Source of the DNA: an uncultured Myxococcales bacterium
GTDB taxonomy: Bacteria > Myxococcota > UBA4151
Reading direction: 5' to 3'
Assembly (NCBI GenBank): GCA_964013405.1
Contig: CAXGWI010000134.1
Location: 1-10,057 of the forward strand
DNA length: 10,057 bases
The notes beneath the pieces were generated by a model that searched no databases, was not told the origin of the DNA, and worked only from the letters and a program-made list of their open reading frames with translations. The position numbers and the translations under genes are program-made. Shown piece by piece: positions 13-10,037 of this stretch. The number at the start of each line of letters is the position of its first letter. Positions within the stretch are counted from its first letter, which is position 1.

Positions 13-1098
13 CTAGGGTACCGTCGCCTTGATCCGCACCTGAGTGGCCTCGCCCTTGGGAAAGTTGAGGGACTGGAGTTCGCCTAAGAGACAGGCTGCT
101 GAATACTCAGGTCCTGGGCGCCCGCTTCTCGAGCGGACACCGGTCACTTGGCCATTTGCCGACACCGAGATGAGAAAGGTGACCGTGCCCCGGAGACCGG
201 GCTTGGCGATCTTTGCACTTTTGAGACAACTCACGAACTTGGCCTGCCGTGTGGCGAGGGAGCGCTTCAACTCCGCTTGGCGGTCTGCGGACCGCACCGG
301 TGACTGTTCGCTTTTTTCCACCTTGTTCAGTGCTGCCTGGGCTGTTTTCGTATCTTCGTCTTCCGGGATGTTAACGACCCGGCGGGCGGGGGCCGAGGGC
401 TCGGGCCTGGCTTGGGCTGGCTTCGCCTTTTGCTGGGCCACCGGAGCCACTTTCTTTGGGGAGGGAGCAGGCTTTTTTGTTGCCGCAGGCGCGGTGTCCG
501 CAGGCACTTTGGTTGTGGGCCCTGCGTCGGGAACTGGCTCGGCGGGCGTTGGAGGTGCTGGCTGCTCGGCAGTTTGTGCCGTTGGGCTGGCTGGTGCACT
601 GGGCTTGGGTAAGCCCTCGGTGGGTTCGGGTTTTGAGATGAGATAGACAGCGCCGAGGGCGAGACCAGCGCCCATCACAAGACCCACGAGCAGGCCAAGC
701 CCGCCACGTTTGGGCTTGTCGGTCGAGCGGCGCCCCCTGTTGGATCGCCGCCGTTCGGGTTGGGGGTTTGCGGTGGGCTTTGGGCTGGCTTGATCGGGCC
801 CGGGGGCCTGTTGGGCCCAGGCAGGCTCATTGGGGATTTCGAGTTCGTCGGTGCCCTCCGGCGCCCGGAACTGCAAGAGGGTGCCGGTCATCTCCTCGTG
901 GACCTTGCTGGCTTCTCGGATCCATGCGGCTCTAGCGCTGTCGCCGACGGACTCCCAGCCGGCCATGCCCTCGGTCCAGCAGGCTTCATCCCCGCGCAGA
1001 AAGCCGCCTCGGGCGGCCTTCGCCAGATCGGCCCGACTGCCCTGCAGGACGATGGCCCCATCCCGAGCCAAATACCACGTTTGTTGCTCTTCGCTCAC
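13..1098 (-). CDS. GYF_2 (DUF4339)-domain inner-membrane protein with Pro-rich linker and C-terminal AgmX/PglI-C (TonB-C-like) domain
   Basis: N-terminal WYLARDG...CWTEGMAGWESV is GYF_2-like. A basic stretch RRRSNRGRRSTDKPKR precedes the TM helix GLGLLVGLVMGAGLALGAVYLIS, followed by a long P/A/K/E-rich linker. The C-terminal FVSCLK...PGLRGTVTFLISVSANGQVTGV...AACLLGELQSLNFP carries the Cys pair typical of AgmX/PglI-C. Start moved from 1134 to GTG 1098, which has GAGG 7 nt upstream; the 1134 GTG overlaps the predicted -10 box. Confidence 0.8.
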   Translation of the reverse strand: MSEEQQTWYLARDGAIVLQGSRADLAKAARGGFLRGDEACWTEGMAGWESVGDSARAAWIREASKVHEEMTGTLLQFRAPEGTDELEIPNEPAWAQQAPGPDQASPKPTANPQPERRRSNRGRRSTDKPKRGGLGLLVGLVMGAGLALGAVYLISKPEPTEGLPKPSAPASPTAQTAEQPAPPTPAEPVPDAGPTTKVPADTAPAATKKPAPSPKKVAPVAQQKAKPAQARPEPSAPARRVVNIPEDEDTKTAQAALNKVEKSEQSPVRSADRQAELKRSLATRQAKFVSCLKSAKIAKPGLRGTVTFLISVSANGQVTGVRSRSGRPGPEYSAACLLGELQSLNFPKGEATQVRIKATVP

Positions 1099-1126
1099 CC
1101 AAGCACCTCGCGCGACAACCGGCGCA

Positions 1127-1155
1127 AGTATCACCCGCTTGAGCTAGACTGGCAA
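1127..1155 (-). promoter_or_regulatory. Putative sigma70-type promoter for the GYF_2 gene
   Basis: Minus strand TTGCCA (1155-1150), 17 nt spacer, GATACT (1132-1127): 5/6 and 4/6 matches to consensus, within the 70-bp intergenic gap. Confidence 0.5.
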
Positions 1156-1168
1156 AAGAATGGTCGGC

Positions 1169-2233
1169 CTAGTTCCGGCCGGGCTCCATGCGCCAAGCCT
1201 CGTCGAACTCAGCATTCTCGTAGGCGAGCTTGGTTTCGACCATACCCCCGGCCGGGGCTGGCAGCTGGAACGTTAGCTCCATTTCCACATACTTCGTGTG
1301 GTGGGGCACGAGGGGGAGTTGACGCCAACCGATCGTGAGGCCCGGAGGAAAGTCCGCGATCTTATCCTGAGGCCGCTTCATGATGAAGTCGGGCTCTGAG
1401 GTCTCCGCTTGAATGATGCGTCGCCCCTCTTTGACGCAGAGGTCTTTGAGGAAGGCTTCCTCGTCCAAAGGAAGTTTGATCTCTCCGCCAAAGCCCTCAA
1501 GGTAAATGGATTCAAGGGGTTTGGAACGTTCCCGGTTTGCCCGAGAGACCTCGTCGGCTTGGTCTTGCTGATGCTCGACGTTGGACTTGACGATGTCGAG
1601 GGCCTCTTTACTCCAGGCCTCCCAGGACTTCATGGCTTCCTCTTTGTTGAGGTAGGTGTTGGGGCCCAGGCAAATGGTCGTGTCAAAGCCACCATAGGTG
1701 ACATCACCCGGGTTGCCCCAAACGACGTAATCAGCAAGGACCGTGTCGTTTCCACGCAGCTCCTCTTTACGAATGTTGAAGAGGTCCATGCGGTAGCCAT
1801 TGGCCGTTGCGGTCAGTTCCGGCTCGTAGTCACCACTCTTCATTTGGTCGAAGATTTTCTTCGCGAAGTCGTAGTATTCTTTTTGTTCGGAAAACTCTTG
1901 CTCCGTGATGGCAGCGCTCTCCTTCCGGGCCGTTAGCTTTGTGAGATAAGCATCGGGCTGATTCTCTTGTGCGAAGCCAGCATATTCGGGGCGCCGCTTC
2001 AGCATGCTCAGATCTTGGAAATAGTCCTCAAACCAGCCCTGAACATTGCGGGCATAATCGTCGGGTTCCGCCCGCTCAGCCAACCCCTGCTTCGCCATGT
2101 GCTTGAGGCGCAGTTCCCCTCGATCGAGGTAGTACAGTGCTCTTAACTCGGATTGGGCAGAGTCCTGCCAGTAGTAAATAGCACCGCCGGCCAGAGCGGC
2201 ACAGGCTACGAGAAATGGGGCGACGATCTTCAT
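1169..2233 (-). CDS. Hypothetical N-terminally anchored or exported protein (354 aa)
   Basis: Long ORF with protein-like composition, ATG preceded by GAAGGGA, N-terminal MK plus hydrophobic stretch (IVAPFLVACAALAGGAIYYW), helical N-half and beta-rich C-half. No recognisable catalytic motif. Confidence 0.85.
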   Translation of the reverse strand: MKIVAPFLVACAALAGGAIYYWQDSAQSELRALYYLDRGELRLKHMAKQGLAERAEPDDYARNVQGWFEDYFQDLSMLKRRPEYAGFAQENQPDAYLTKLTARKESAAITEQEFSEQKEYYDFAKKIFDQMKSGDYEPELTATANGYRMDLFNIRKEELRGNDTVLADYVVWGNPGDVTYGGFDTTICLGPNTYLNKEEAMKSWEAWSKEALDIVKSNVEHQQDQADEVSRANRERSKPLESIYLEGFGGEIKLPLDEEAFLKDLCVKEGRRIIQAETSEPDFIMKRPQDKIADFPPGLTIGWRQLPLVPHHTKYVEMELTFQLPAPAGGMVETKLAYENAEFDEAWRMEPGRN

Positions 2234-2278: not shown

Positions 2279-4240
2279 TCAGTCCAGCATGATGCTGCGC
2301 GCATTGCCCGATGGGTCAACGGCCCGGCAGCTTCGCAGACTTTTGACGAGGATTGCCAGGGGCGATGGGACCTCGAAGCGGCGGACCTTCGCATCGGCAA
2401 GTGCATCACTTGGTGTCAGTTGGATGGAGCGGCGTGGCGACTGGCAAGTGAGAGAGACCACCCGATCCTCATCTTCGGTATCGATCAATAGCTTGCCCTG
2501 CTTACGGTCCAGACGAACCACACGCATCTGGGGCGGGCTGTGGTCGACCTTGACCACAAGGGAGCGACGCATGGGGCTGCGGACGCCACTGCTATCTTCG
2601 GCCTGGACCTCCACTTGATAGCTCCCGCTTGCGATGGCGGAAGTTTTCATACTCCAATAGGGCCGGTCCGTTTCGACCTGCCGGACCAGGCGACGGCTAC
2701 CATCTTGACCAAGGCGATGGAGAGAGAGGCGGTACTGGAGCGGGTCCTTGTCCGGGTCTTCCGCTTTCCAGATCACACCCCGGTATCCCCGTTGCCAGCG
2801 GACCGATCCCCGCCGTTCTGGCTCGCTGGGTCCTGCGGCCCTCTGGGGGTCGGTCACATAATCGTCGAGCTTCAGGTCTGGAAGGGTGAAGCCCTTACTG
2901 AAATCGAAGCTGTCGGCCTTGTCTTCTAGGCGGGTTCCCGGTGCGAGCACGGTAATGCTGATCACCTCAGGAGGTCGGTTGAGGGGGCTATAGAACTGCT
3001 CGACTCGGGTGAGATGCCCCCCCGGCTTGAAGAGGATCTCGACTTGGGCATACCTGGCCCGGCCTCCGGGCTTGGCTTGCCACTGGGTCCAACCCTCGCC
3101 GGCCGAGTCCTCGCCGAAACGCCATTTGATCGATTGAATCCCCTTCGATTCGGTCCGCAGCGACCCCCAGTTGGCTCGGTGCCCCGCATCAAGAATCTTG
3201 CTACGATATCGATGCTGTTCTCCTGAGCTTTCACTGCGGCGCAGGCCCCCTCCATGGGCCAGGAGGCCCGCTTTGCTCTGGGCGAGACCCTCAATCGCTC
3301 GGCGGTCACGGACTCCGAAGCGCCTTTGGGCCCCTTGGGCGGCGAGGGGGGAACCATCGGCTCCCGCTCGGGTTGGAAAGCCATAGATATAGCCTAGGTC
3401 CGTACCCACGAGGATTTCATCGCGGGCTCTGATCAGCGTGAGTGGCGTCTCACCATCGGAGGACCAAAGGAGCGATTGCGGTTCCGATGGCCGGATGAAT
3501 TCCAGCGCACCGCCACCCCGACTGCGGGGGCTTGGCGGTGGGATCTTGCCTTCCTCGGAGCCGTCGGTGGACACGCTCATGGCGAAGAGCTGCTGATCGC
3601 CGATGAGGCTTAAGGCCATCACCTCTGGGTTGAGGGTTTGCCCAACCACCCGGGGCGTGGCGCTTGTTAGATCCCAGACACGCCCGGTGGTGAGCTCGCC
3701 CACAAACACGACGGATCCGCGGCTGACAACAGAACGCAGTCCCTCGCCCGGAAGGGGCACGGACCGCAGCACTTTCTTACCTTGGACGTGGTATGCAGCA
3801 CTCGGTTCAGCGGCGACGATCCAGGCCCCTTTGTCGGCGCCACAGTCGACAGCCCAGATTTGACCATGGGCTTTGGGGAGCGGAACCAATTCAAACTTTC
3901 GCCCATCGGCCGCAAAGAACAACTCGCCTTTGGGGCCAGCGACAACGTAGCGGGCAACGCCTTTTTGGCAGGCATCACCCAAGGCCTTGTGGGCGAGGTG
4001 AAGGATGGGCTTGTTTTGGCTGTCGAGCCAACGGAGGGGCTCACTGAGGAGCACAGAACCGTCGGGAAATGCTCGCAGGACGGCACCGGGAAGGTCGCCT
4101 GATTTGAGGAGGACGGGGGCCGTCTCGATGCGGCCCCGGGCTGTCACTGCCGTGCCATCGCTCTCGCCCTCAGCCAGGGCCGCCACACCTTGGAGGTCGG
4201 CGACCTGAGTGATGCTCAGTAAAAGAGGGAGAACAAACAT
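2279..4240 (-). CDS. Exported hypothetical protein with N-terminal beta-propeller-like repeats and C-terminal Ig/FN3-like domains (653 aa)
   Basis: True start is probably ATG 4240 (MFVLPLLLSITQVA), 2 nt after the stop of the upstream peptidase; the ORF extension to 4486 overlaps that gene. Blade-like repeats: GQIWAVDC, SVVFVGELTTGRVWDL, EVMALSL, EILVGTDLGYIY. Ig/FN3-like motifs: NRPPEVISITVL, WKAEDPDKDPLQYRL, SGSYQVEVQAEDSSG, VDHSPPQM. Confidence 0.8.
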   Translation of the reverse strand: MFVLPLLLSITQVADLQGVAALAEGESDGTAVTARGRIETAPVLLKSGDLPGAVLRAFPDGSVLLSEPLRWLDSQNKPILHLAHKALGDACQKGVARYVVAGPKGELFFAADGRKFELVPLPKAHGQIWAVDCGADKGAWIVAAEPSAAYHVQGKKVLRSVPLPGEGLRSVVSRGSVVFVGELTTGRVWDLTSATPRVVGQTLNPEVMALSLIGDQQLFAMSVSTDGSEEGKIPPPSPRSRGGGALEFIRPSEPQSLLWSSDGETPLTLIRARDEILVGTDLGYIYGFPTRAGADGSPLAAQGAQRRFGVRDRRAIEGLAQSKAGLLAHGGGLRRSESSGEQHRYRSKILDAGHRANWGSLRTESKGIQSIKWRFGEDSAGEGWTQWQAKPGGRARYAQVEILFKPGGHLTRVEQFYSPLNRPPEVISITVLAPGTRLEDKADSFDFSKGFTLPDLKLDDYVTDPQRAAGPSEPERRGSVRWQRGYRGVIWKAEDPDKDPLQYRLSLHRLGQDGSRRLVRQVETDRPYWSMKTSAIASGSYQVEVQAEDSSGVRSPMRRSLVVKVDHSPPQMRVVRLDRKQGKLLIDTEDEDRVVSLTCQSPRRSIQLTPSDALADAKVRRFEVPSPLAILVKSLRSCRAVDPSGNARSIMLD

Positions 4241-4242
4241 AA

Positions 4243-5856
4243 TCACTGGGCTCCCGGAAGGATATCGATGGCGGCGGAGAGGTGCCCGGTCACCGGACCC
4301 GGGTTCTGAATGATGGCTCCGCGGGCCACCCGTTGAAAGACGTGTGCTTTGCTGTCGAGACTGGGTCCGGCAAGGGCCTCGACCCGACCACTCGTCAGGC
4401 TGCCAACTTCGGCGAAGCTGCGGCTGTTTGCGCCTCGCAGTGCGACCAGGGCTAACTCGTGGGGGCCATGACGGGCATTGAGCCAATCCACGATGGCTTC
4501 GATGCGCCGGGGAGGCTCGCCGTGCCCAGCCAGGCGCTCCGCCTCGTCAAGCAGGGATCCAGTGCACACGTGGACGGTCAAAGGCCCCGGAGCCGTGCCT
4601 CGGGGAATCGGTAGCTTGAGTCGAATCTGTCGCTCGCCCCCTTGATACCTTCGCAGTCGAGCGACGACGACCACGTCTTCACCGGCCCGGACCCGGGGGG
4701 TCAGGACCCGGAGGTCGCGGAGCGTCTCGACTTGGACTTCGCTCTGGTGTTCGACCTTTAGTTGGAGGCCGGAGGGTTTCAGGCTGCCGATGGGATTGTC
4801 GATCAGCACGCTGAGGTAGCCACCGAGGGCTCGGGCAAGGGGGCCGGCGAGCCCCATAGACGTAGGATGCGCCGTCCATTCATCGAGCTTCAATGACCCG
4901 TGTTCAGTCGTAATCGTCCCAGTGAGTCGCAGGGTGCCGCCAGCCTCAAAGGCCTGACGTTCTTTGAGGGCGTTTGCGAGCACGGCTTTGGCGATCAATG
5001 GAAGGACCCGTCGATGCCAGGCCATTTCCACATCGTAGGTGGATGAGCCGACCTGGATCTTCAGGGGGATCGTTTGGGGCAAGGGGCCGATCTTACCACC
5101 GATGGCCGGCAGCCGATCTTGGGTCATGGTGCCGACCCGCTTGCCCAAGCGAGAAATTTTGAACGCGTGCATGGGACTGGGCAGCGTGGTGCTGATCCAG
5201 GCTGTGGCCACGGGGAGCTCGGATTGCCCATCCCCAAACATGGGGTGGCCGAACGCCAGGAAGCTCTTGCCATCGGTCCACGTCACGGTGCCGGTGGAGA
5301 AGATATCGACATCGCCTCGGGCTAGCTCAACCGCGATGGCACCACCGTTCACGAGCTCATCTGGCGTTCCTGCCGCACCGCTGCCGCCACCTAACACGGG
5401 CCGAACCCGCGGGTATCCAGCGGACTTAAAGCTCTCTCCCAATTCGTTGGCCACCGCCGGGTCGAGCCCGGCCGAGACAAGGGGAAGCGTCAACATCTGG
5501 GATGCTGTTGTCCCCCGACGGGTGGCGCCCTGACCGAGGAGGACCCCCCGCATCGCATCGATGGGCGTGATGCCTGCGATAGGCTCCCGGGAGAAAGAGC
5601 CCATTCGGTAGCCGACAGCGCCAATGAGTTGGCCGTCTCGATAGACGGGGGAGCCAGACATGCCAGCGATGACACCCGTGTGTTCGATACGCTCACCGGT
5701 CAGGCGGGCGAGAATCAAATCAAGGTCCGGACCGAGTCCCCGGGGGAGTCTGTCGAGAATGGTGACCCCGAAGCGTTGCGGTTGATCGCCTTCGTAGACG
5801 GTGATGCCGTGAACGGTCCCGCTGGCGAAGAGCAGGGCTGGGATGAAAGCGACCAT
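4243..5856 (-). CDS. SpoIVB-like peptidase S55 domain protein (537 aa)
   Basis: GVIAGMSGSPVYRDGQLIGAV matches the SpoIVB GIVQGMSGSPI...GKLIGAV nucleophile motif (Ser67). GTVTWTDGKSFLAFGHPM matches the SpoIVB GTxT...ALGH His motif (His204). GGAGG upstream of ATG; short hydrophobic N-terminus. Confidence 0.88.
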   Translation of the reverse strand: MVAFIPALLFASGTVHGITVYEGDQPQRFGVTILDRLPRGLGPDLDLILARLTGERIEHTGVIAGMSGSPVYRDGQLIGAVGYRMGSFSREPIAGITPIDAMRGVLLGQGATRRGTTASQMLTLPLVSAGLDPAVANELGESFKSAGYPRVRPVLGGGSGAAGTPDELVNGGAIAVELARGDVDIFSTGTVTWTDGKSFLAFGHPMFGDGQSELPVATAWISTTLPSPMHAFKISRLGKRVGTMTQDRLPAIGGKIGPLPQTIPLKIQVGSSTYDVEMAWHRRVLPLIAKAVLANALKERQAFEAGGTLRLTGTITTEHGSLKLDEWTAHPTSMGLAGPLARALGGYLSVLIDNPIGSLKPSGLQLKVEHQSEVQVETLRDLRVLTPRVRAGEDVVVVARLRRYQGGERQIRLKLPIPRGTAPGPLTVHVCTGSLLDEAERLAGHGEPPRRIEAIVDWLNARHGPHELALVALRGANSRSFAEVGSLTSGRVEALAGPSLDSKAHVFQRVARGAIIQNPGPVTGHLSAAIDILPGAQ

Positions 5857-5887: not shown

Positions 5888-7654
5888 TCAAGTCTTCAGA
5901 GGATAGCCTTCAGCTGCGATGGCAGCATCACCGATCTCTCGGCCCAGCTTCACCACGTTGACTTGGTTGGGCCGTACCAAGGGCTGGATGAGGTCGAGGC
6001 TCTCTCCTGCGCCGAGATCGATCAGTTGCCTTTGGGCGATAGCTCGGGCTTCGTCGAGGGCAAGGGTCGCATAGAGATCGGCCATTTTGCCCATCAATTC
6101 GTCACCGCTCTGCTGCGCTCTTCGAGCACTGCTGTCGACCACATAGCTAAGAATCACGAGATCGGCGCATCCCACCAAAGACTCCTGCTCTCGCACCATG
6201 CCCGTGCCGTGCACAGCCCCGGCCATGCCCATGACATAGATGGCCAGTCGACGCAGTCGAGCGGCGGTCTCAAGGGCGACAGCACCGATGCCGTCGTAGC
6301 TGGGAAGGTCCAATTGCCCCGTCGCGAGGCCCTGCATCAGCTTTTGTTGCGCACCGACGATTTCCATCAGTTGGCCTTTCAGAGCCTTACGCATGATCGT
6401 GCCCGGGATGAGCATACGGTTGATTTCGTTGGTGCCTTCCCAAATTCGATTGATTCGACTGTTACGGTAGGCCCCCTCGGCGAAATAGTCCTCGATGAAG
6501 CCGTAGCCACCGTGAAGTTGCACGAATTCGTCAACCGCCTCGTCGAGGATTTCGCTGCCGAAGATCTTCATGGCGGCGCATTCGACCGCAAACTCCTCAA
6601 GGATTTTGACCTTCCGCTCGCCGTAGTCCTCGGCCACGGGGTCCAGTCCCTCAAGAGCTTTGTCGATTTCTCCAGAACACCGGTAGAGTGCACTCTCCAC
6701 GGCGAAGGTCTTCACGACGAGACTGCCAATTTTCGACCGGGTCAGGGCAAACTCCGCAATCGATTTGTTGAACTGTCGACGCTCGGAAACATAGGCGATG
6801 ATTTTGTTCAGGCCTTGTTTGACCCCACCGGCCGCCCCGGCAGCCAACTTGAGTCGCCCCACATTGAGCACGCCAAAAGCAATACGGTGACCTTTGCCCA
6901 CCTTGCCCAGAAGTTGGGGCGTCGGCACGTTGCAGTCGGTGAAGGTGACCGGGCAGGTACTCGAACCGCGAACACCCATCTTGTGTTCTTCCGGTCCGAT
7001 GTCGATGCCACCGTCTTCTTTTTTAGCGACAAAGCCTGTGAAATTACGACCCTGCTCCGCTGCCTCCGGGTCCACTTGACCGAAAACACAGAAGTAGTCG
7101 GCGAAGCCTGCGTTGGTGATGAACTGCTTGTTACCATTGAGACGCCAGCCCTCCGGCCCGCTGACTGCGCTGGTACGGGCTGCCATCGCGTCCGAACCCG
7201 AGCCGGGCTCCGTGAGGCAATAGGCACCGATCCATTCCCCGGTGGCCGATTTCGGTAAGATCTCGCTTTTGGTCTCGTGACTGCCGAAGAACACGACGGG
7301 CAGGGTGCCAATTCCCATGTGGGCCACGGCCGTCACGCTGAAGTTGGCCTCTCGGGAAAACTCCTCACCGACGATGGATGCGGTGGTGATGCCGAGACCC
7401 AGTCCGCCGTAGGCTTCGGGAATCTCGACCATCAGCAGGCCTTGCTCACCGGCTTTGAGCATCAGCTCTCGCATCAAGATGAGGTCCTTTTTTTCAAGAG
7501 CCTGAGCGTGGGGAATGACCTCCCGCTCCATAAACTCTCGAGCGACCTGTTTGAATTGGCGTTGTTCCTCGCTGAACCCCTCCGGGCTCGGAATGGGTCG
7601 GTCCAAGTCATCCACCACGAGGAATCCGGCGCCTCGATCAAAGGCATGTGTCAT
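5888..7654 (-). CDS. fadE: Long-type acyl-CoA dehydrogenase (B. subtilis FadE/YusJ- and VLCAD-like, 588 aa)
   Basis: ACAD motifs AYCLTEPGSGSDA, LNGNKQFITNA, EEHKMGVRGSSTC, ERRQFNKSIAEF, QLHGGYGFIEDY and RIWEGTNEINR (catalytic Glu406), plus the N-terminal RGAGFL motif and C-terminal extension of the long class. Start chosen at ATG 7654 (GGAG 9 nt upstream) because ATG 7696 overlaps the palindromic operator. Confidence 0.93.
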   Translation of the reverse strand: MTHAFDRGAGFLVVDDLDRPIPSPEGFSEEQRQFKQVAREFMEREVIPHAQALEKKDLILMRELMLKAGEQGLLMVEIPEAYGGLGLGITTASIVGEEFSREANFSVTAVAHMGIGTLPVVFFGSHETKSEILPKSATGEWIGAYCLTEPGSGSDAMAARTSAVSGPEGWRLNGNKQFITNAGFADYFCVFGQVDPEAAEQGRNFTGFVAKKEDGGIDIGPEEHKMGVRGSSTCPVTFTDCNVPTPQLLGKVGKGHRIAFGVLNVGRLKLAAGAAGGVKQGLNKIIAYVSERRQFNKSIAEFALTRSKIGSLVVKTFAVESALYRCSGEIDKALEGLDPVAEDYGERKVKILEEFAVECAAMKIFGSEILDEAVDEFVQLHGGYGFIEDYFAEGAYRNSRINRIWEGTNEINRMLIPGTIMRKALKGQLMEIVGAQQKLMQGLATGQLDLPSYDGIGAVALETAARLRRLAIYVMGMAGAVHGTGMVREQESLVGCADLVILSYVVDSSARRAQQSGDELMGKMADLYATLALDEARAIAQRQLIDLGAGESLDLIQPLVRPNQVNVVKLGREIGDAAIAAEGYPLKT

Positions 7655-7677
7655 CTTTTCTAGCTCCAAATAGGCAC

Positions 7678-7695
7678 TGAATGAGCGCTCATTCA
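7678..7695. promoter_or_regulatory. Perfect 18-bp palindromic operator (TetR/FadR-type)
   Basis: TGAATGAGCGCTCATTCA is its own reverse complement and lies 23 nt upstream of the ACAD start. Its outer 7+7 bases match the B. subtilis FadR box TGAATGA-N4-TCATTCA. Confidence 0.8.
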
Positions 7696-7722
7696 TTAAG
7701 CCTGACCGGGGGGAGATTGCAA
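7693..7722 (-). promoter_or_regulatory. Putative sigma70 promoter of the acyl-CoA dehydrogenase block
   Basis: Minus strand TTGCAA (7722-7717) followed 16-18 nt later by AT-rich CTTAATGA, which runs into the palindrome. The -10 register is ambiguous. Confidence 0.4.
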
Positions 7723-7887: not shown

Positions 7888-8250
7888 ATGAATATTATCG
7901 ATCAGCTCGAGCAGGAATGCCTACGAGACGATCTGCCCGAGTTTCGTCCTGGCGATACCGTCGTGGTTCACGCCCGGATTAAAGAGGGCAACAAGGAACG
8001 TGTTCAGGTCTTTGAAGGGGTCTGCATCGCTCGTCAAAATGGCGGCAGCCGCGAGACCTTCACCGTTCGCAAGATGGCTTCCGACCATGTGGGTGTTGAG
8101 CGGGTCTTTCCGCTGCACAGCCCGCGGATCGAAAAAATCGAGGTGCGCCGTCTCGGACGGGTGCGTCGTGCGAAGCTTTACTACTTGCGGGAGCGCAGTG
8201 GACGGGCCGCCCGGATCGCCGAGCGGATCCCTGGCAGCGGATCCAGGTAA
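7888..8250 (+). CDS. rplS: 50S ribosomal protein L19 (bL19)
   Basis: [56 protein letters not shown] signature; GGAG RBS. Confidence 0.99.
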
Positions 8251-8273
8251 CGGGTCGAACATCGATCTCACAC

Positions 8274-8303
8274 GGGGCAGCTTCGGCTGCCTTTTGTGTT
8301 TTT
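8274..8303 (+). terminator. Intrinsic terminator after rplS
   Basis: GGGGCAGC-TTCG-GCTGCCTT stem with a cUUCGg tetraloop, followed by TTTTGTGTTTTT. Confidence 0.85.
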
Positions 8304-8340
8304 GCTGGGGCCGCTTAGATGAGGTGCTCGGAGGCTGTGG

Positions 8341-9291
8341 TTGAGCAATATTTTTCAATTTGAGATTGAGCCGCCCGATGCAGGGCAGCGTCTGGATCGC
8401 TTTCTCGCGCTGGCTGTCCCGGCCCTAAGCCGTTCGGCGATCCAGCGCCTCATCCGGGATGGCGACGTGACGGTCGACGGCGAACTCACCGTGCCTAAAC
8501 TTCGGATTCAGACGGGCCAGCGGGTCAGTCTCAGGGTTCCACCCCCCCGGGCGGCGGCTCCAGAGCCGCAACAGATGGATCTGGTTTTCTTATATCGAGA
8601 TGAACACTTGGTTGTGATCGATAAACCGGCCGGACTCACTGTGCACCCGGCCCCTGGTCAAGGGGACCGGACGCTGGTGAACGGTCTGCTCTTTGAAGGC
8701 ATTGGTCTATCGGGCATCGGTGGTGTCCAGCGGCCAGGGATCGTGCACCGTTTAGATCGGGAGACCAGTGGCGTGATGGTGGTCGCGTGCCATGATGAAG
8801 CCCACCGCCACCTTTCAAAGGCCTTCGCATTACGAGAGGTGGAGAAGACCTACCTGTGTGTGACCGCTGGCAAGCCCCGCCAGCCGGAGGGGTTAATCGA
8901 TACGCCCTACGGTCGAGATCCGAACCACCGCCTTCGTTTTTCGGGCAAGGTCCGGTCGGATCGACGGGCTCGGACGCGCTATCGGGTTCTCGAGACTTTC
9001 GGTCCTTGCGCCCTCGTCGAGATCGATCTGTTGACCGGCCGTACCCATCAGATCCGAGTGCATTTGAGCGAGGCCGGTACACCCCTCGTGGGGGATGAAC
9101 TCTACGGGGGTGCCAATCGATGGAAGGGGGTAAGTTGGGCGCCGGCGAAAGAAGCGATGCGGGCCATGACCCGGCAGGCGCTTCATGCGAGCCGGCTCGC
9201 ATTCACCCATCCGATAACGAAGGAGGCGATGGTCTTCGAATCCCCACTTCCCGCAGACTTTCAGGGCTTGATCCAAGCCCTCCGAGCATGA
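8341..9291 (+). CDS. rluD: RluA/RluD family 23S rRNA pseudouridine synthase with N-terminal S4 domain
   Basis: S4 domain (GQRLDRFL...SRSAIQRLI), DKPAGLTVHP, RPGIVHRLDRETSG (catalytic Asp139), TGRTHQIRVH, RQALHA. TTG start with GGAGG 6 nt upstream; adjacent to yfiH as in E. coli. Confidence 0.95.
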   Translation: MSNIFQFEIEPPDAGQRLDRFLALAVPALSRSAIQRLIRDGDVTVDGELTVPKLRIQTGQRVSLRVPPPRAAAPEPQQMDLVFLYRDEHLVVIDKPAGLTVHPAPGQGDRTLVNGLLFEGIGLSGIGGVQRPGIVHRLDRETSGVMVVACHDEAHRHLSKAFALREVEKTYLCVTAGKPRQPEGLIDTPYGRDPNHRLRFSGKVRSDRRARTRYRVLETFGPCALVEIDLLTGRTHQIRVHLSEAGTPLVGDELYGGANRWKGVSWAPAKEAMRAMTRQALHASRLAFTHPITKEAMVFESPLPADFQGLIQALRA

Positions 9292-10037
9292 TGGCAGACC
9301 TACCCGTCACTCAGGCGAGCAACCTGGTGGCAGGGGGCTTCCAGCACGGTTTCTTTGGCTGCGGCCCAGCACCGGGCCTTCCCATGGTGGCTCGGGGGGG
9401 AGCATCCCCGGTTCGAGTGGCTGAGAGTCGAGGGCGAATCGTCCGTTATCTCGGCATTGTCCCCGAGGCCCTGCACCGAGCTCAACAGGTTCATGGGCTT
9501 GGGATTCTCGAGGTGAGCGAAGGGGACGATCGTCGCCGATGGGGAGAGACAGAGGGAGACGCTTTAATCGCCCGGGAACCCGGGGTCGCCGTGGGCGTTT
9601 TGACAGCCGACTGTGCGCCCCTGCTCGCCGCCGACTCGAGCAGTGGCTGGGTTGCCGCTGCCCACCTGGGTCGGCGGGGGGCCCTCGCCGGACTGGCCGG
9701 CGCGGTCGTGGGTCGTTTGCTTGAAAAAGGGGCCTCGCTGGAACATCTTCGTTTTGCCGTCGGCCCCCACATCCAAGCAGAGAGCTATGAGGTGGGAGAG
9801 GCCCTCTATCAGGAACTCCCAACGGTGGCCCAACACCGTGACCAGGCGGGGCGGGCCTGTTGCAACCTGCGAGCGATCATTGCAGCCGATTTGGCCGGTC
9901 ATGGGGTTCGACCGGAGCAGATCGAATGGAGTCCAGCGGATACGCTGTCCGATATGGGCTTCTTCTCCTACCGCCGGCAGGGGGATCAGGCCGGCCGTCA
10001 ACTCAGCGCAATCGTGGCTGGGGGTGCCCGTGGTTGA
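9288..10037 (+). CDS. pgeF: YfiH/PgeF (LACC1-like purine nucleoside phosphorylase / laccase-domain) protein
   Basis: QVHG (His69), TADCAP (Cys109), AAAH (His126), GPHI, YEVG, FFSYRR. The start at ATG 9288 or 9291 overlaps the rluD stop (ATGATG); the ORF extension to 9120 lies inside rluD. Confidence 0.93.
   Translation: MMADLPVTQASNLVAGGFQHGFFGCGPAPGLPMVARGGASPVRVAESRGRIVRYLGIVPEALHRAQQVHGLGILEVSEGDDRRRWGETEGDALIAREPGVAVGVLTADCAPLLAADSSSGWVAAAHLGRRGALAGLAGAVVGRLLEKGASLEHLRFAVGPHIQAESYEVGEALYQELPTVAQHRDQAGRACCNLRAIIAADLAGHGVRPEQIEWSPADTLSDMGFFSYRRQGDQAGRQLSAIVAGGARG

Follow-up and report, generated by a model that had tools for sequence, protein, structure and literature searches.

The DNA analysed here is a stretch of 10,057 nucleotides (the window) that makes up an entire contig (CAXGWI010000134.1) of an uncultured Myxococcales bacterium, whose genome assembly (GCA_964013405.1) is 3.9 Mb in size and 94% complete. 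It encodes on its minus strand an S55-related peptidase and, 2 nucleotides (nt) further on, a beta-propeller protein that is referred to below as the partner. Our analyses indicate that the peptidase is a circularly permuted, PDZ-less relative of the S55/clan PA proteases and not SpoIVB proper. Its serine-bearing barrel precedes the histidine-bearing one, and three residues at the predicted active site are invariant in nearly all family members. The two genes co-occur and adjoin in distant genomes, are fused in one lineage and have congruent trees. The explanation that best accounts for the system as a whole, which we hold with about even confidence, is that of a permuted periplasmic protease in which the propeller partner has replaced the function of a PDZ domain. 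The central features of the locus are as follows.

5856..4243, minus strand: peptidase, 537 amino acids (aa) (P0001), open reading frame (ORF)
4241..4242, minus strand: 2-nt spacer from stop to start codon, in the sequence ...GCCCAG TGA TT ATG TTT
4240..2279, minus strand: partner, 653 aa (P0002), ORF; structural model with predicted local distance difference test (pLDDT) 88 and predicted template modelling score (pTM) 0.74

The ORF positions and the TGA-TT-ATG junction that were given in a preliminary description of this DNA are both correct on the minus strand. An identical 2-nt gap is present in the genomes G001 and G003 (loci L200 and L201), and the peptidase and the partner are likely translationally coupled through this spacer. 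The peptidase gene is the only PF05580 gene in the whole genome.

Domain order of the peptidase

The AlphaFold model of the peptidase (pLDDT 87, pTM 0.85) consists of four domains.

5527..5823, minus strand: Ser barrel, residues 12-110, the C-terminal barrel of chymotrypsin-fold proteases (structure match, hhalign)
5083..5499, minus strand: His barrel, residues 120-258, the N-terminal barrel of SpoIVB and trypsin-like proteases, in second place (hhalign, structure match)
4744..5073, minus strand: middle alpha/beta domain, residues 262-371 (model secondary structure; no named family)
4258..4728, minus strand: C-terminal beta-rich domain with helical insert, residues 377-533 (model)

The preliminary description had called this protein SpoIVB-like S55, a label that is upheld for the Ser half. 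PF05580 is matched above its cut-off (30.3 vs 25 bits) by residues 18-83 only, corresponding to profile positions 126-192 of 210, and the matches to PF05580 and to the SpoIVB structure 9LNF together cover residues 12-83 only, which pair with the C-terminal, serine-bearing part of SpoIVB. The label fails on the features that define SpoIVB: the order of the barrels is permuted, TIGR02860 (SpoIVB) scores 28.3 bits, far below the family cut-off of 305.25, no PDZ domain was found by Pfam at E<=0.1, and the C-terminal part of the peptidase gives no alignment to SpoIVB (E 0.23). The protein is hence best described as an S55 homologue, by virtue of its PF05580 Ser half and of a His half whose match (E 0.0017) is weak and in register at the His. 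The permuted order, the absence of a PDZ domain and the probable conventional Asp discussed below had all been overlooked.

The permutation is indicated by comparisons of both sequence and structure. In profile matches to SpoIVB the order is crossed, with positions 32-109 aligning to SpoIVB 301-376 and positions 240-262, around the His, aligning to SpoIVB 204-228. Against 86 distinct SpoIVB sequences (after trimming), hhalign aligns the Ser half with E 4e-16. The His half is aligned with E 0.0017; its score (28.2) exceeds those of all 100 column shuffles (maximum 26.3) and of the reversed profile (14.0), and its register is unchanged in smaller alignments (E 0.007). When the His-half profile was compared with PDB sequences and NCBIfam, no SpoIVB was found. 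In structural terms (VIA), the Ser barrel superposes on residues 322-419 of 9LNF (Z 7.8, root-mean-square deviation (rmsd) 3.3, 95 aligned) and on DegS 152-254 (Z 8.9), and model residues 11-110 fit the second barrel of many trypsin-like proteases (Z 7-9). Residues 120-258 match SplE from its N-terminus (Z 6.1, rmsd 4.1, 82 aligned; a middling value). Both barrels of the clan PA fold are in this way accounted for, barrel 2 at Z 7-9 and barrel 1 at the middling Z 6.1. A Foldseek search with the whole peptidase model returned nothing at E<=0.001, as is expected for a permuted fold. Singly, the lines of evidence for the His half are weak and the Z values middling, yet all of them agree.

The permuted order is a property of the family at large. 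The Ser precedes the His in all 356 members in which the three positions are aligned, with 134-269 residues between them. The two barrels are predicted to rejoin into one compact fold, because of the pTM of 0.85 and the covariation of residue 29 in the first barrel with residues 189 and 202 in the second. The sole listed structural match of the middle domain is a designed protein (Z 6.3), and a loop of the C-terminal domain (residues 478-503) is of low model confidence. In agreement with the preliminary description, there is no sign of endospore formation: Spo0A_C has zero matches in the 94%-complete genome, and the Bacillus subtilis control was positive.

Catalytic residues and their counterparts in SpoIVB

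Three residues are candidates for the catalytic triad.

5656..5658, minus strand: Ser67 in GMSGSP, predicted nucleophile, equivalent to SpoIVB Ser378 (356 of 357 family proteins; 9LNF alignment)
5245..5247, minus strand: His204 in AFGHP, predicted catalytic base, equivalent to SpoIVB His236 (357 of 357; aligned to the SpoIVB His)
5116..5118, minus strand: Asp247 in TQDR, predicted third triad residue (356 of 357; aligned with SpoIVB Asn290)

Ser67 had been singled out in the preliminary description, and its conservation makes it the right candidate for the nucleophile. Asp247 lies 43 residues past the His in 347 of 356 proteins, which is close to the spacing of His57 and Asp102 in chymotrypsin. 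In the SpoIVB of locus L112 the Asp247 column is occupied by an Asn located 54 residues past the His, which by offset is Asn290 of B. subtilis. Since Asn290, Asp363 and Thr393 are each invariant in all 86 SpoIVBs, conservation within SpoIVB cannot pick the third catalytic residue. In the permuted family, no conserved polar residue is found at the position of Asp363, and the position of Thr393 is occupied by Ser (184 of 357), Ala (152) or Gly (20). The alignment suggests that the third catalytic residue of SpoIVB may be Asn290; the alignment columns concerned are of low confidence and lie across a 10-residue gap, and we offer this as a prediction only.

The assignment of His236, Asp363 and Ser378 reportedly stems from the 2002 work of Hoa et al., which may already have included a test of Asn290. 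In the accessible part of the 2025 report of the SpoIVB crystal structure, the accepted Asp363 lies ~24 Å from His236 and Thr393 is proposed instead (PMC12502668). Asn290 is a testable candidate for the third catalytic residue of SpoIVB, and a single mutation suffices for the test.

Domain architecture of the partner

The partner consists of a propeller, a beta-sandwich and two Ig-like domains.

3221..4120, minus strand: WD40-like beta-propeller, residues 41-340 (VIA Z 27.6, rmsd 2.8, 267 aligned; Reg_prop in 50 of 58 members)
2981..3202, minus strand: conserved beta-sandwich, residues 347-420 (model strands)
2531..2980, minus strand: Ig-like domain 1, residues 421-570, with conserved N421, D495, D499 and D549 (Pfam, model, conservation)
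2288..2530, minus strand: Ig-like domain 2, residues 571-651, with D616, D642 and N646 (model, conservation)

The propeller that the preliminary description had seen in this protein is borne out by the model, in which it is closed and spans ~300 residues; its size and top matches point to seven blades. The accompanying Ig label stands less firmly, as it rests on weak Pfam matches (Big_13 E 0.04 here; 6 of 58 members at E<=0.01) and on the strand pattern. The sandwich is likely completed by N-terminal strands 12-40. The most conserved residues of the partner are in the sandwich, where R374, W384, W387 and Q399 are conserved in 140-142 of 142 sequences, and in the Ig domains. Residues at the blade starts of the propeller are also retained in two-gene members (W129 in 55 of 57, H at 167 in 45, E206 in all 57 and Q at 315 in 43). 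In family f9, whose genomes are small, the partner is cut to propeller and sandwich and is encoded apart from the peptidase (L216:4394-5884, L217:9438-10667 and L231). In Atlas, clusters of the partner carry automatic names only and are commonest in Acidobacteriota, Myxococcota and Spirochaetota.

Export of the two proteins

5821..5856, minus strand: short hydrophobic N-terminus of the peptidase, residues 1-12, likely a signal peptide (hydropathy)

The peptidase and the partner each start with ~12 hydrophobic residues (best 10-residue Kyte-Doolittle mean ~2.6, at residue 1), as the preliminary description had observed. Both proteins may be exported by means of short signal peptides, a suggestion that is based on hydropathy, the segments being short and without a basic n-region. 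Most homologues pass the same crude criterion (stand-alone peptidases, 215 of 244; fusions, 77 of 89; partners, 49 of 58), but so does, in one instance, a control protein of the cytoplasm (RluD, with 2.1 at residue 21). The peptidase of the window and its closest relatives (P0003-P0010) do not have the N-terminal strand MPxxExRPGM that most members of the family possess, and the signal-like segment therefore adjoins the Ser barrel in these proteins.

Co-occurrence, fusion and phylogeny of the pair

The peptidase family is large: at 90% clustering, 5995 of the 7999 candidates that were scored belong to it, and at 50% clustering it has 4589 representatives (E<=1e-30). A neighbourhood analysis outside Bacillota, as the preliminary description had proposed, was carried out for the best 80 of 599 GTDB peptidase loci, which are mostly from Acidobacteriota and also from Latescibacterota, KSB1, WOR-3, Gemmatimonadota, Sericytochromatia and Myxococcota. 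The pair proved to be conserved: the partner is adjacent in 31 loci, lies within 7 kb in 21 and is unseen despite full flanks in 19, and in the other 9 the ends are too short. Six of the 19 partnerless loci were searched genome-wide, and the partner was present elsewhere in five of them.

The phylogenetic profiles of the two genes are nearly the same, although related genomes are not independent in these counts. Among 301 genomes of the own phylum of the window, 53 have the peptidase, and 51 of these also have the partner, which is directly downstream in 44; a shortened partner in G107, one of three f9 members with this form, brings the total to 52 of 53. No partner was detected at E<=1e-20 in any of the 248 own-phylum genomes without the peptidase, and whole families have neither gene (f10, 0 of 141; f14, 0 of 45). 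In Acidobacteriota (the phylum of G305), both genes are present in the same 95 of 101 genomes and absent from the same 6; among the 95 is an unpublished genome (G483), without which the claim still holds. The third gene of the operon, used as a control, shows a distribution clearly unlike theirs (69 of 101). In the phylum of G307 the peptidase is found in 9 of 151 genomes.

Fused forms of the two proteins provide further evidence of their connection. All 93 of the long homologues found (1225-3495 aa) have the order peptidase-linker-partner, with the partner C-terminal, and 89 of them include the post-propeller part of the partner. The linker consists of 57-195 residues and is rich in Ala, Pro, Glu and Ser, and the source names of the fusions are Armatimonadota, Abditibacteriales and Obscuribacterales. 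Trees were constructed for 86 of the 142 peptidase-partner pairs. Of the 46 splits with support in the peptidase tree, 40 are found again in that of the partner, with which all 46 are compatible. The statement in the preliminary description that such pairs occur in non-sporulating diderm phyla is therefore well founded, the pairs being conserved with near-perfect co-occurrence, congruent trees and fusion in one lineage. Inter-chain covariation (142 paired rows) was discarded, its top signals being peptidase columns after ~495 that were misaligned onto the fused partner, and the rest noise (effective number of sequences, Neff, 75).

Of the 80 loci, 28 have a gene for an FtsX/MacB-type (LolC/E-like) permease near the pair, and of the 14 own-phylum loci that were scanned, 4 have LPP20 lipoprotein genes 3' of the partner; the other neighbours are unrelated housekeeping genes. 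In many loci of Acidobacteriaceae (L028-L035, L047, L056 and others) the peptidase gene is immediately followed by one for a zinc alcohol dehydrogenase, which often separates it from the partner; the FtsX/MacB permease gene and a ClpC-like gene come next. Records titled Bifidobacteriaceae and Janthinobacterium (L059 and L029) carry an Acidobacteria-like pair and are likely mislabelled bins rather than cases of transfer.

Proposed mechanism and alternative explanations

We propose that the triad Ser67-His204-Asp247, assembled across the swapped barrels, would cut proteins as a serine endopeptidase. The peptidase is very likely an active protease, and its functional coupling with the partner is close to certain. 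It would reside in the periplasm, bound to the partner as a two-subunit enzyme; such a physical complex is probable. The propeller would take the role that PDZ domains have in SpoIVB and HtrA, viz. substrate picking or gating, and a function as adaptor or gate is slightly favoured. The system may have a housekeeping role in the turnover or maturation of envelope proteins, since it is present in single copy, is near-universal in Acidobacteriota and is often adjoined by envelope genes, a genomic context that is only suggestive.

A number of observations weigh against this explanation. With regard to the permutation, the hhalign probability of the His half to SpoIVB is 16%, PF05580 is matched by only 1 of 15 His halves (E 0.07), and the His half gave no match to 9LNF. 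With regard to the pairing, no partner match was obtained in G103 (96% complete, 270 contigs) or, genome-wide, in G310, both of which have the peptidase, and the partner of G312 is split in four pieces. The 29 sampled fusions form one clade in both trees; all fusions probably stem from one event and are accordingly counted once. Congruence of trees is expected for any vertically inherited neighbours, and a conserved third or substrate gene, which was sought among the neighbours across phyla, was not found, the neighbours being variable. Conservation is lower in the propeller than in the sandwich, E206 is not retained in fusions, and the propeller of the window itself has Gly167 and Ala315 in place of the conserved blade-start residues. 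The genome also encodes a normal DegP, so that the system is not a simple replacement for it.

Four other explanations were considered. The peptidase may be a signalling (site-1) protease, the propeller sensing an envelope cue and the protease cutting a membrane regulator. SpoIVB, the closest characterised relative, acts in this manner according to the accessible part of PMC6242693, and Reg_prop, a propeller of hybrid two-component sensors, is matched in 50 of 58 partners, with 4a2l among the structure matches. However, Reg_prop matches are generic for propellers, and no sigma factor, anti-sigma factor or site-2 protease was seen in 71 scanned neighbours (a subset of 158) or in the recurring neighbour clusters read, which leaves a signalling role improbable. 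The partner could also be a dedicated substrate, i.e. a surface or scaffold protein matured by the peptidase. The conserved Asn/Asp motifs of its Ig-like domains resemble those of surface proteins rigidified by Ca, and one-to-one pairing fits a dedicated maturase. We nevertheless consider this quite unlikely: the pair occurs as a single-chain fusion whose linker has no conserved motif, the partner is unlike variable surface proteins in its single copy, steady length and tree matching that of the peptidase, no anchor domain is among the Pfam families shown for it, and the f9 partners have lost the Ig domains and the pair is still kept.

There is little likelihood that the partner acts as an inhibitor or as a chaperone for folding, which would silence the permuted protease or help its barrels to assemble. 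Its downstream position with coupling-type gaps is compatible with this, as is the finding that the partner was never seen without the peptidase in the 301 and 101 genomes; but an inhibitor of 650-830 aa and four domains would be a large one, permanent fusion would require an internal release step, and the peptidase model is confident when folded alone. A similarly small chance attaches to the idea that the propeller-plus-sandwich core builds a ring like the tail hub gp10 of phage P22, a hexamer, on which the protease would sit as a gated chamber. In Foldseek, chains from the tail hubs or nozzles of podophages take the first three places among the PDB matches (E 9e-11 to 1e-9, TMq 0.32-0.38), gp10-like proteins come first in BFVD (E 1e-13, TMq 0.39-0.40, vs ~0.33 for plain propellers), and the shortest natural partners retain exactly propeller and sandwich. 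Against this, no gp10 family of PHROGs was matched by the 58 members, and the gp10 likeness is just a lead, because the Foldseek superpositions have an rmsd of 7-11 Å (identity 8-11%) and the top 50 VIA matches are plain propellers only.

A bolder form of the preferred explanation, which we regard as doubtful, is that the naturally permuted chymotrypsin fold defines an envelope protease of two subunits that belongs to the core equipment of Acidobacteriota and of several other diderm phyla. Control by a PDZ domain would here be replaced by a propeller subunit resembling a tail hub, perhaps assembled into a gating ring, and the conserved Asp would reveal the SpoIVB triad to be Ser378-His236-Asn290, without Asp363 or Thr393.

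Relationship to known systems

SpoIVB (MEROPS S55, clan PA; PF05580; TIGR02860; PDB 9LNF) shares with the peptidase a homologous Ser barrel with GMSGSP, the His motif GTxT..GH and the nature of a serine protease that is exported, as is presumed here. The peptidase differs from SpoIVB in its reversed barrels, its lack of a PDZ domain, its two extra C-terminal domains, its Asp in place of Asn290 and the lack of a conserved equivalent of Asp363 or Thr393, as well as in its non-sporulating diderm hosts and its constant partner gene. HtrA, DegP and DegS (S1C) have a Ser barrel that superposes on that of the peptidase (Z 8-9), an envelope location and the need for a regulatory module in common with it, whereas their catalytic order is His-Asp-Ser, with the PDZ in the same chain, and that of the peptidase is Ser-His-Asp, with a separate propeller protein as the likely regulator. 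Tricorn and prolyl oligopeptidase likewise combine a protease with a beta-propeller as a potential substrate filter, but they have other catalytic folds (S41 and S9), and the system of the window is usually encoded by two genes. The hub and nozzle proteins of P22 (gp10) and podophage tails share the propeller and beta-sandwich layout of the first 420 residues of the partner, which is distinguished from them as a chromosomal single-copy gene with a signal-like N-terminus, an Ig-like tail and no phage context.

A literature search, with most subscription papers outside its coverage, found no publication on the family, the permutation or the partner, in line with the preliminary description, which knew of no functional characterisation. 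The accessible parts of PMC6411480, PMC6581720 and PMC6242693 deal with SpoIVB itself. What is new here is a partner of propeller, beta-sandwich and Ig-like domains that nearly always accompanies the peptidase. The peptidase itself represents a naturally occurring version, with exchanged barrels, of an enzyme fold that ranks among the best studied. This single-copy protease system is present in 95 of 101 sampled Acidobacteriota and in parts of several other phyla, where current annotations read no more than 'SpoIVB peptidase S55 domain protein' and 'hypothetical protein'.

Surrounding genes

The minus-strand order of genes in the window is acyl-CoA dehydrogenase, peptidase, partner, a 354-aa gene and a GYF_2/GltJ-like gene.

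7696..5888, minus strand: FadE-like acyl-CoA dehydrogenase, directly 5' of the peptidase in family f1 and also in G010 and G019
2233..1169, minus strand: 354-aa protein with hydrophobic N-terminus, without a convincing Pfam family
13-1134, minus strand: GYF_2 domain, hydrophobic segment, Pro-rich linker and AgmX/PglI/GltJ-like C-terminal domain (below cut-off)

The acyl-CoA dehydrogenase gene is probably operon context and no component of the system. The 354-aa gene was rejected as a third component, since it lies 3' of the partner in family f1 only and has a different phylogenetic profile; its distant relatives, which 69 of the 101 Acidobacteriota genomes carry, occur also in families without the peptidase-partner pair. 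Scans for promoters and terminators gave results at chance level only. Two marine metatranscriptomes contain a few short contigs from the locus; the three listed of at least 150 bases lie inside the partner gene (depth 2-3), none crosses the peptidase-partner junction, and contigs from RNA libraries are no proof of transcription. The gene at 13-1134 is gliding-motility-like, and its synteny is kept in family f1. On the plus strand, positions 7888-10037 contain ordinary rplS, RluD-type pseudouridine synthase and YfiH/PgeF-type genes.

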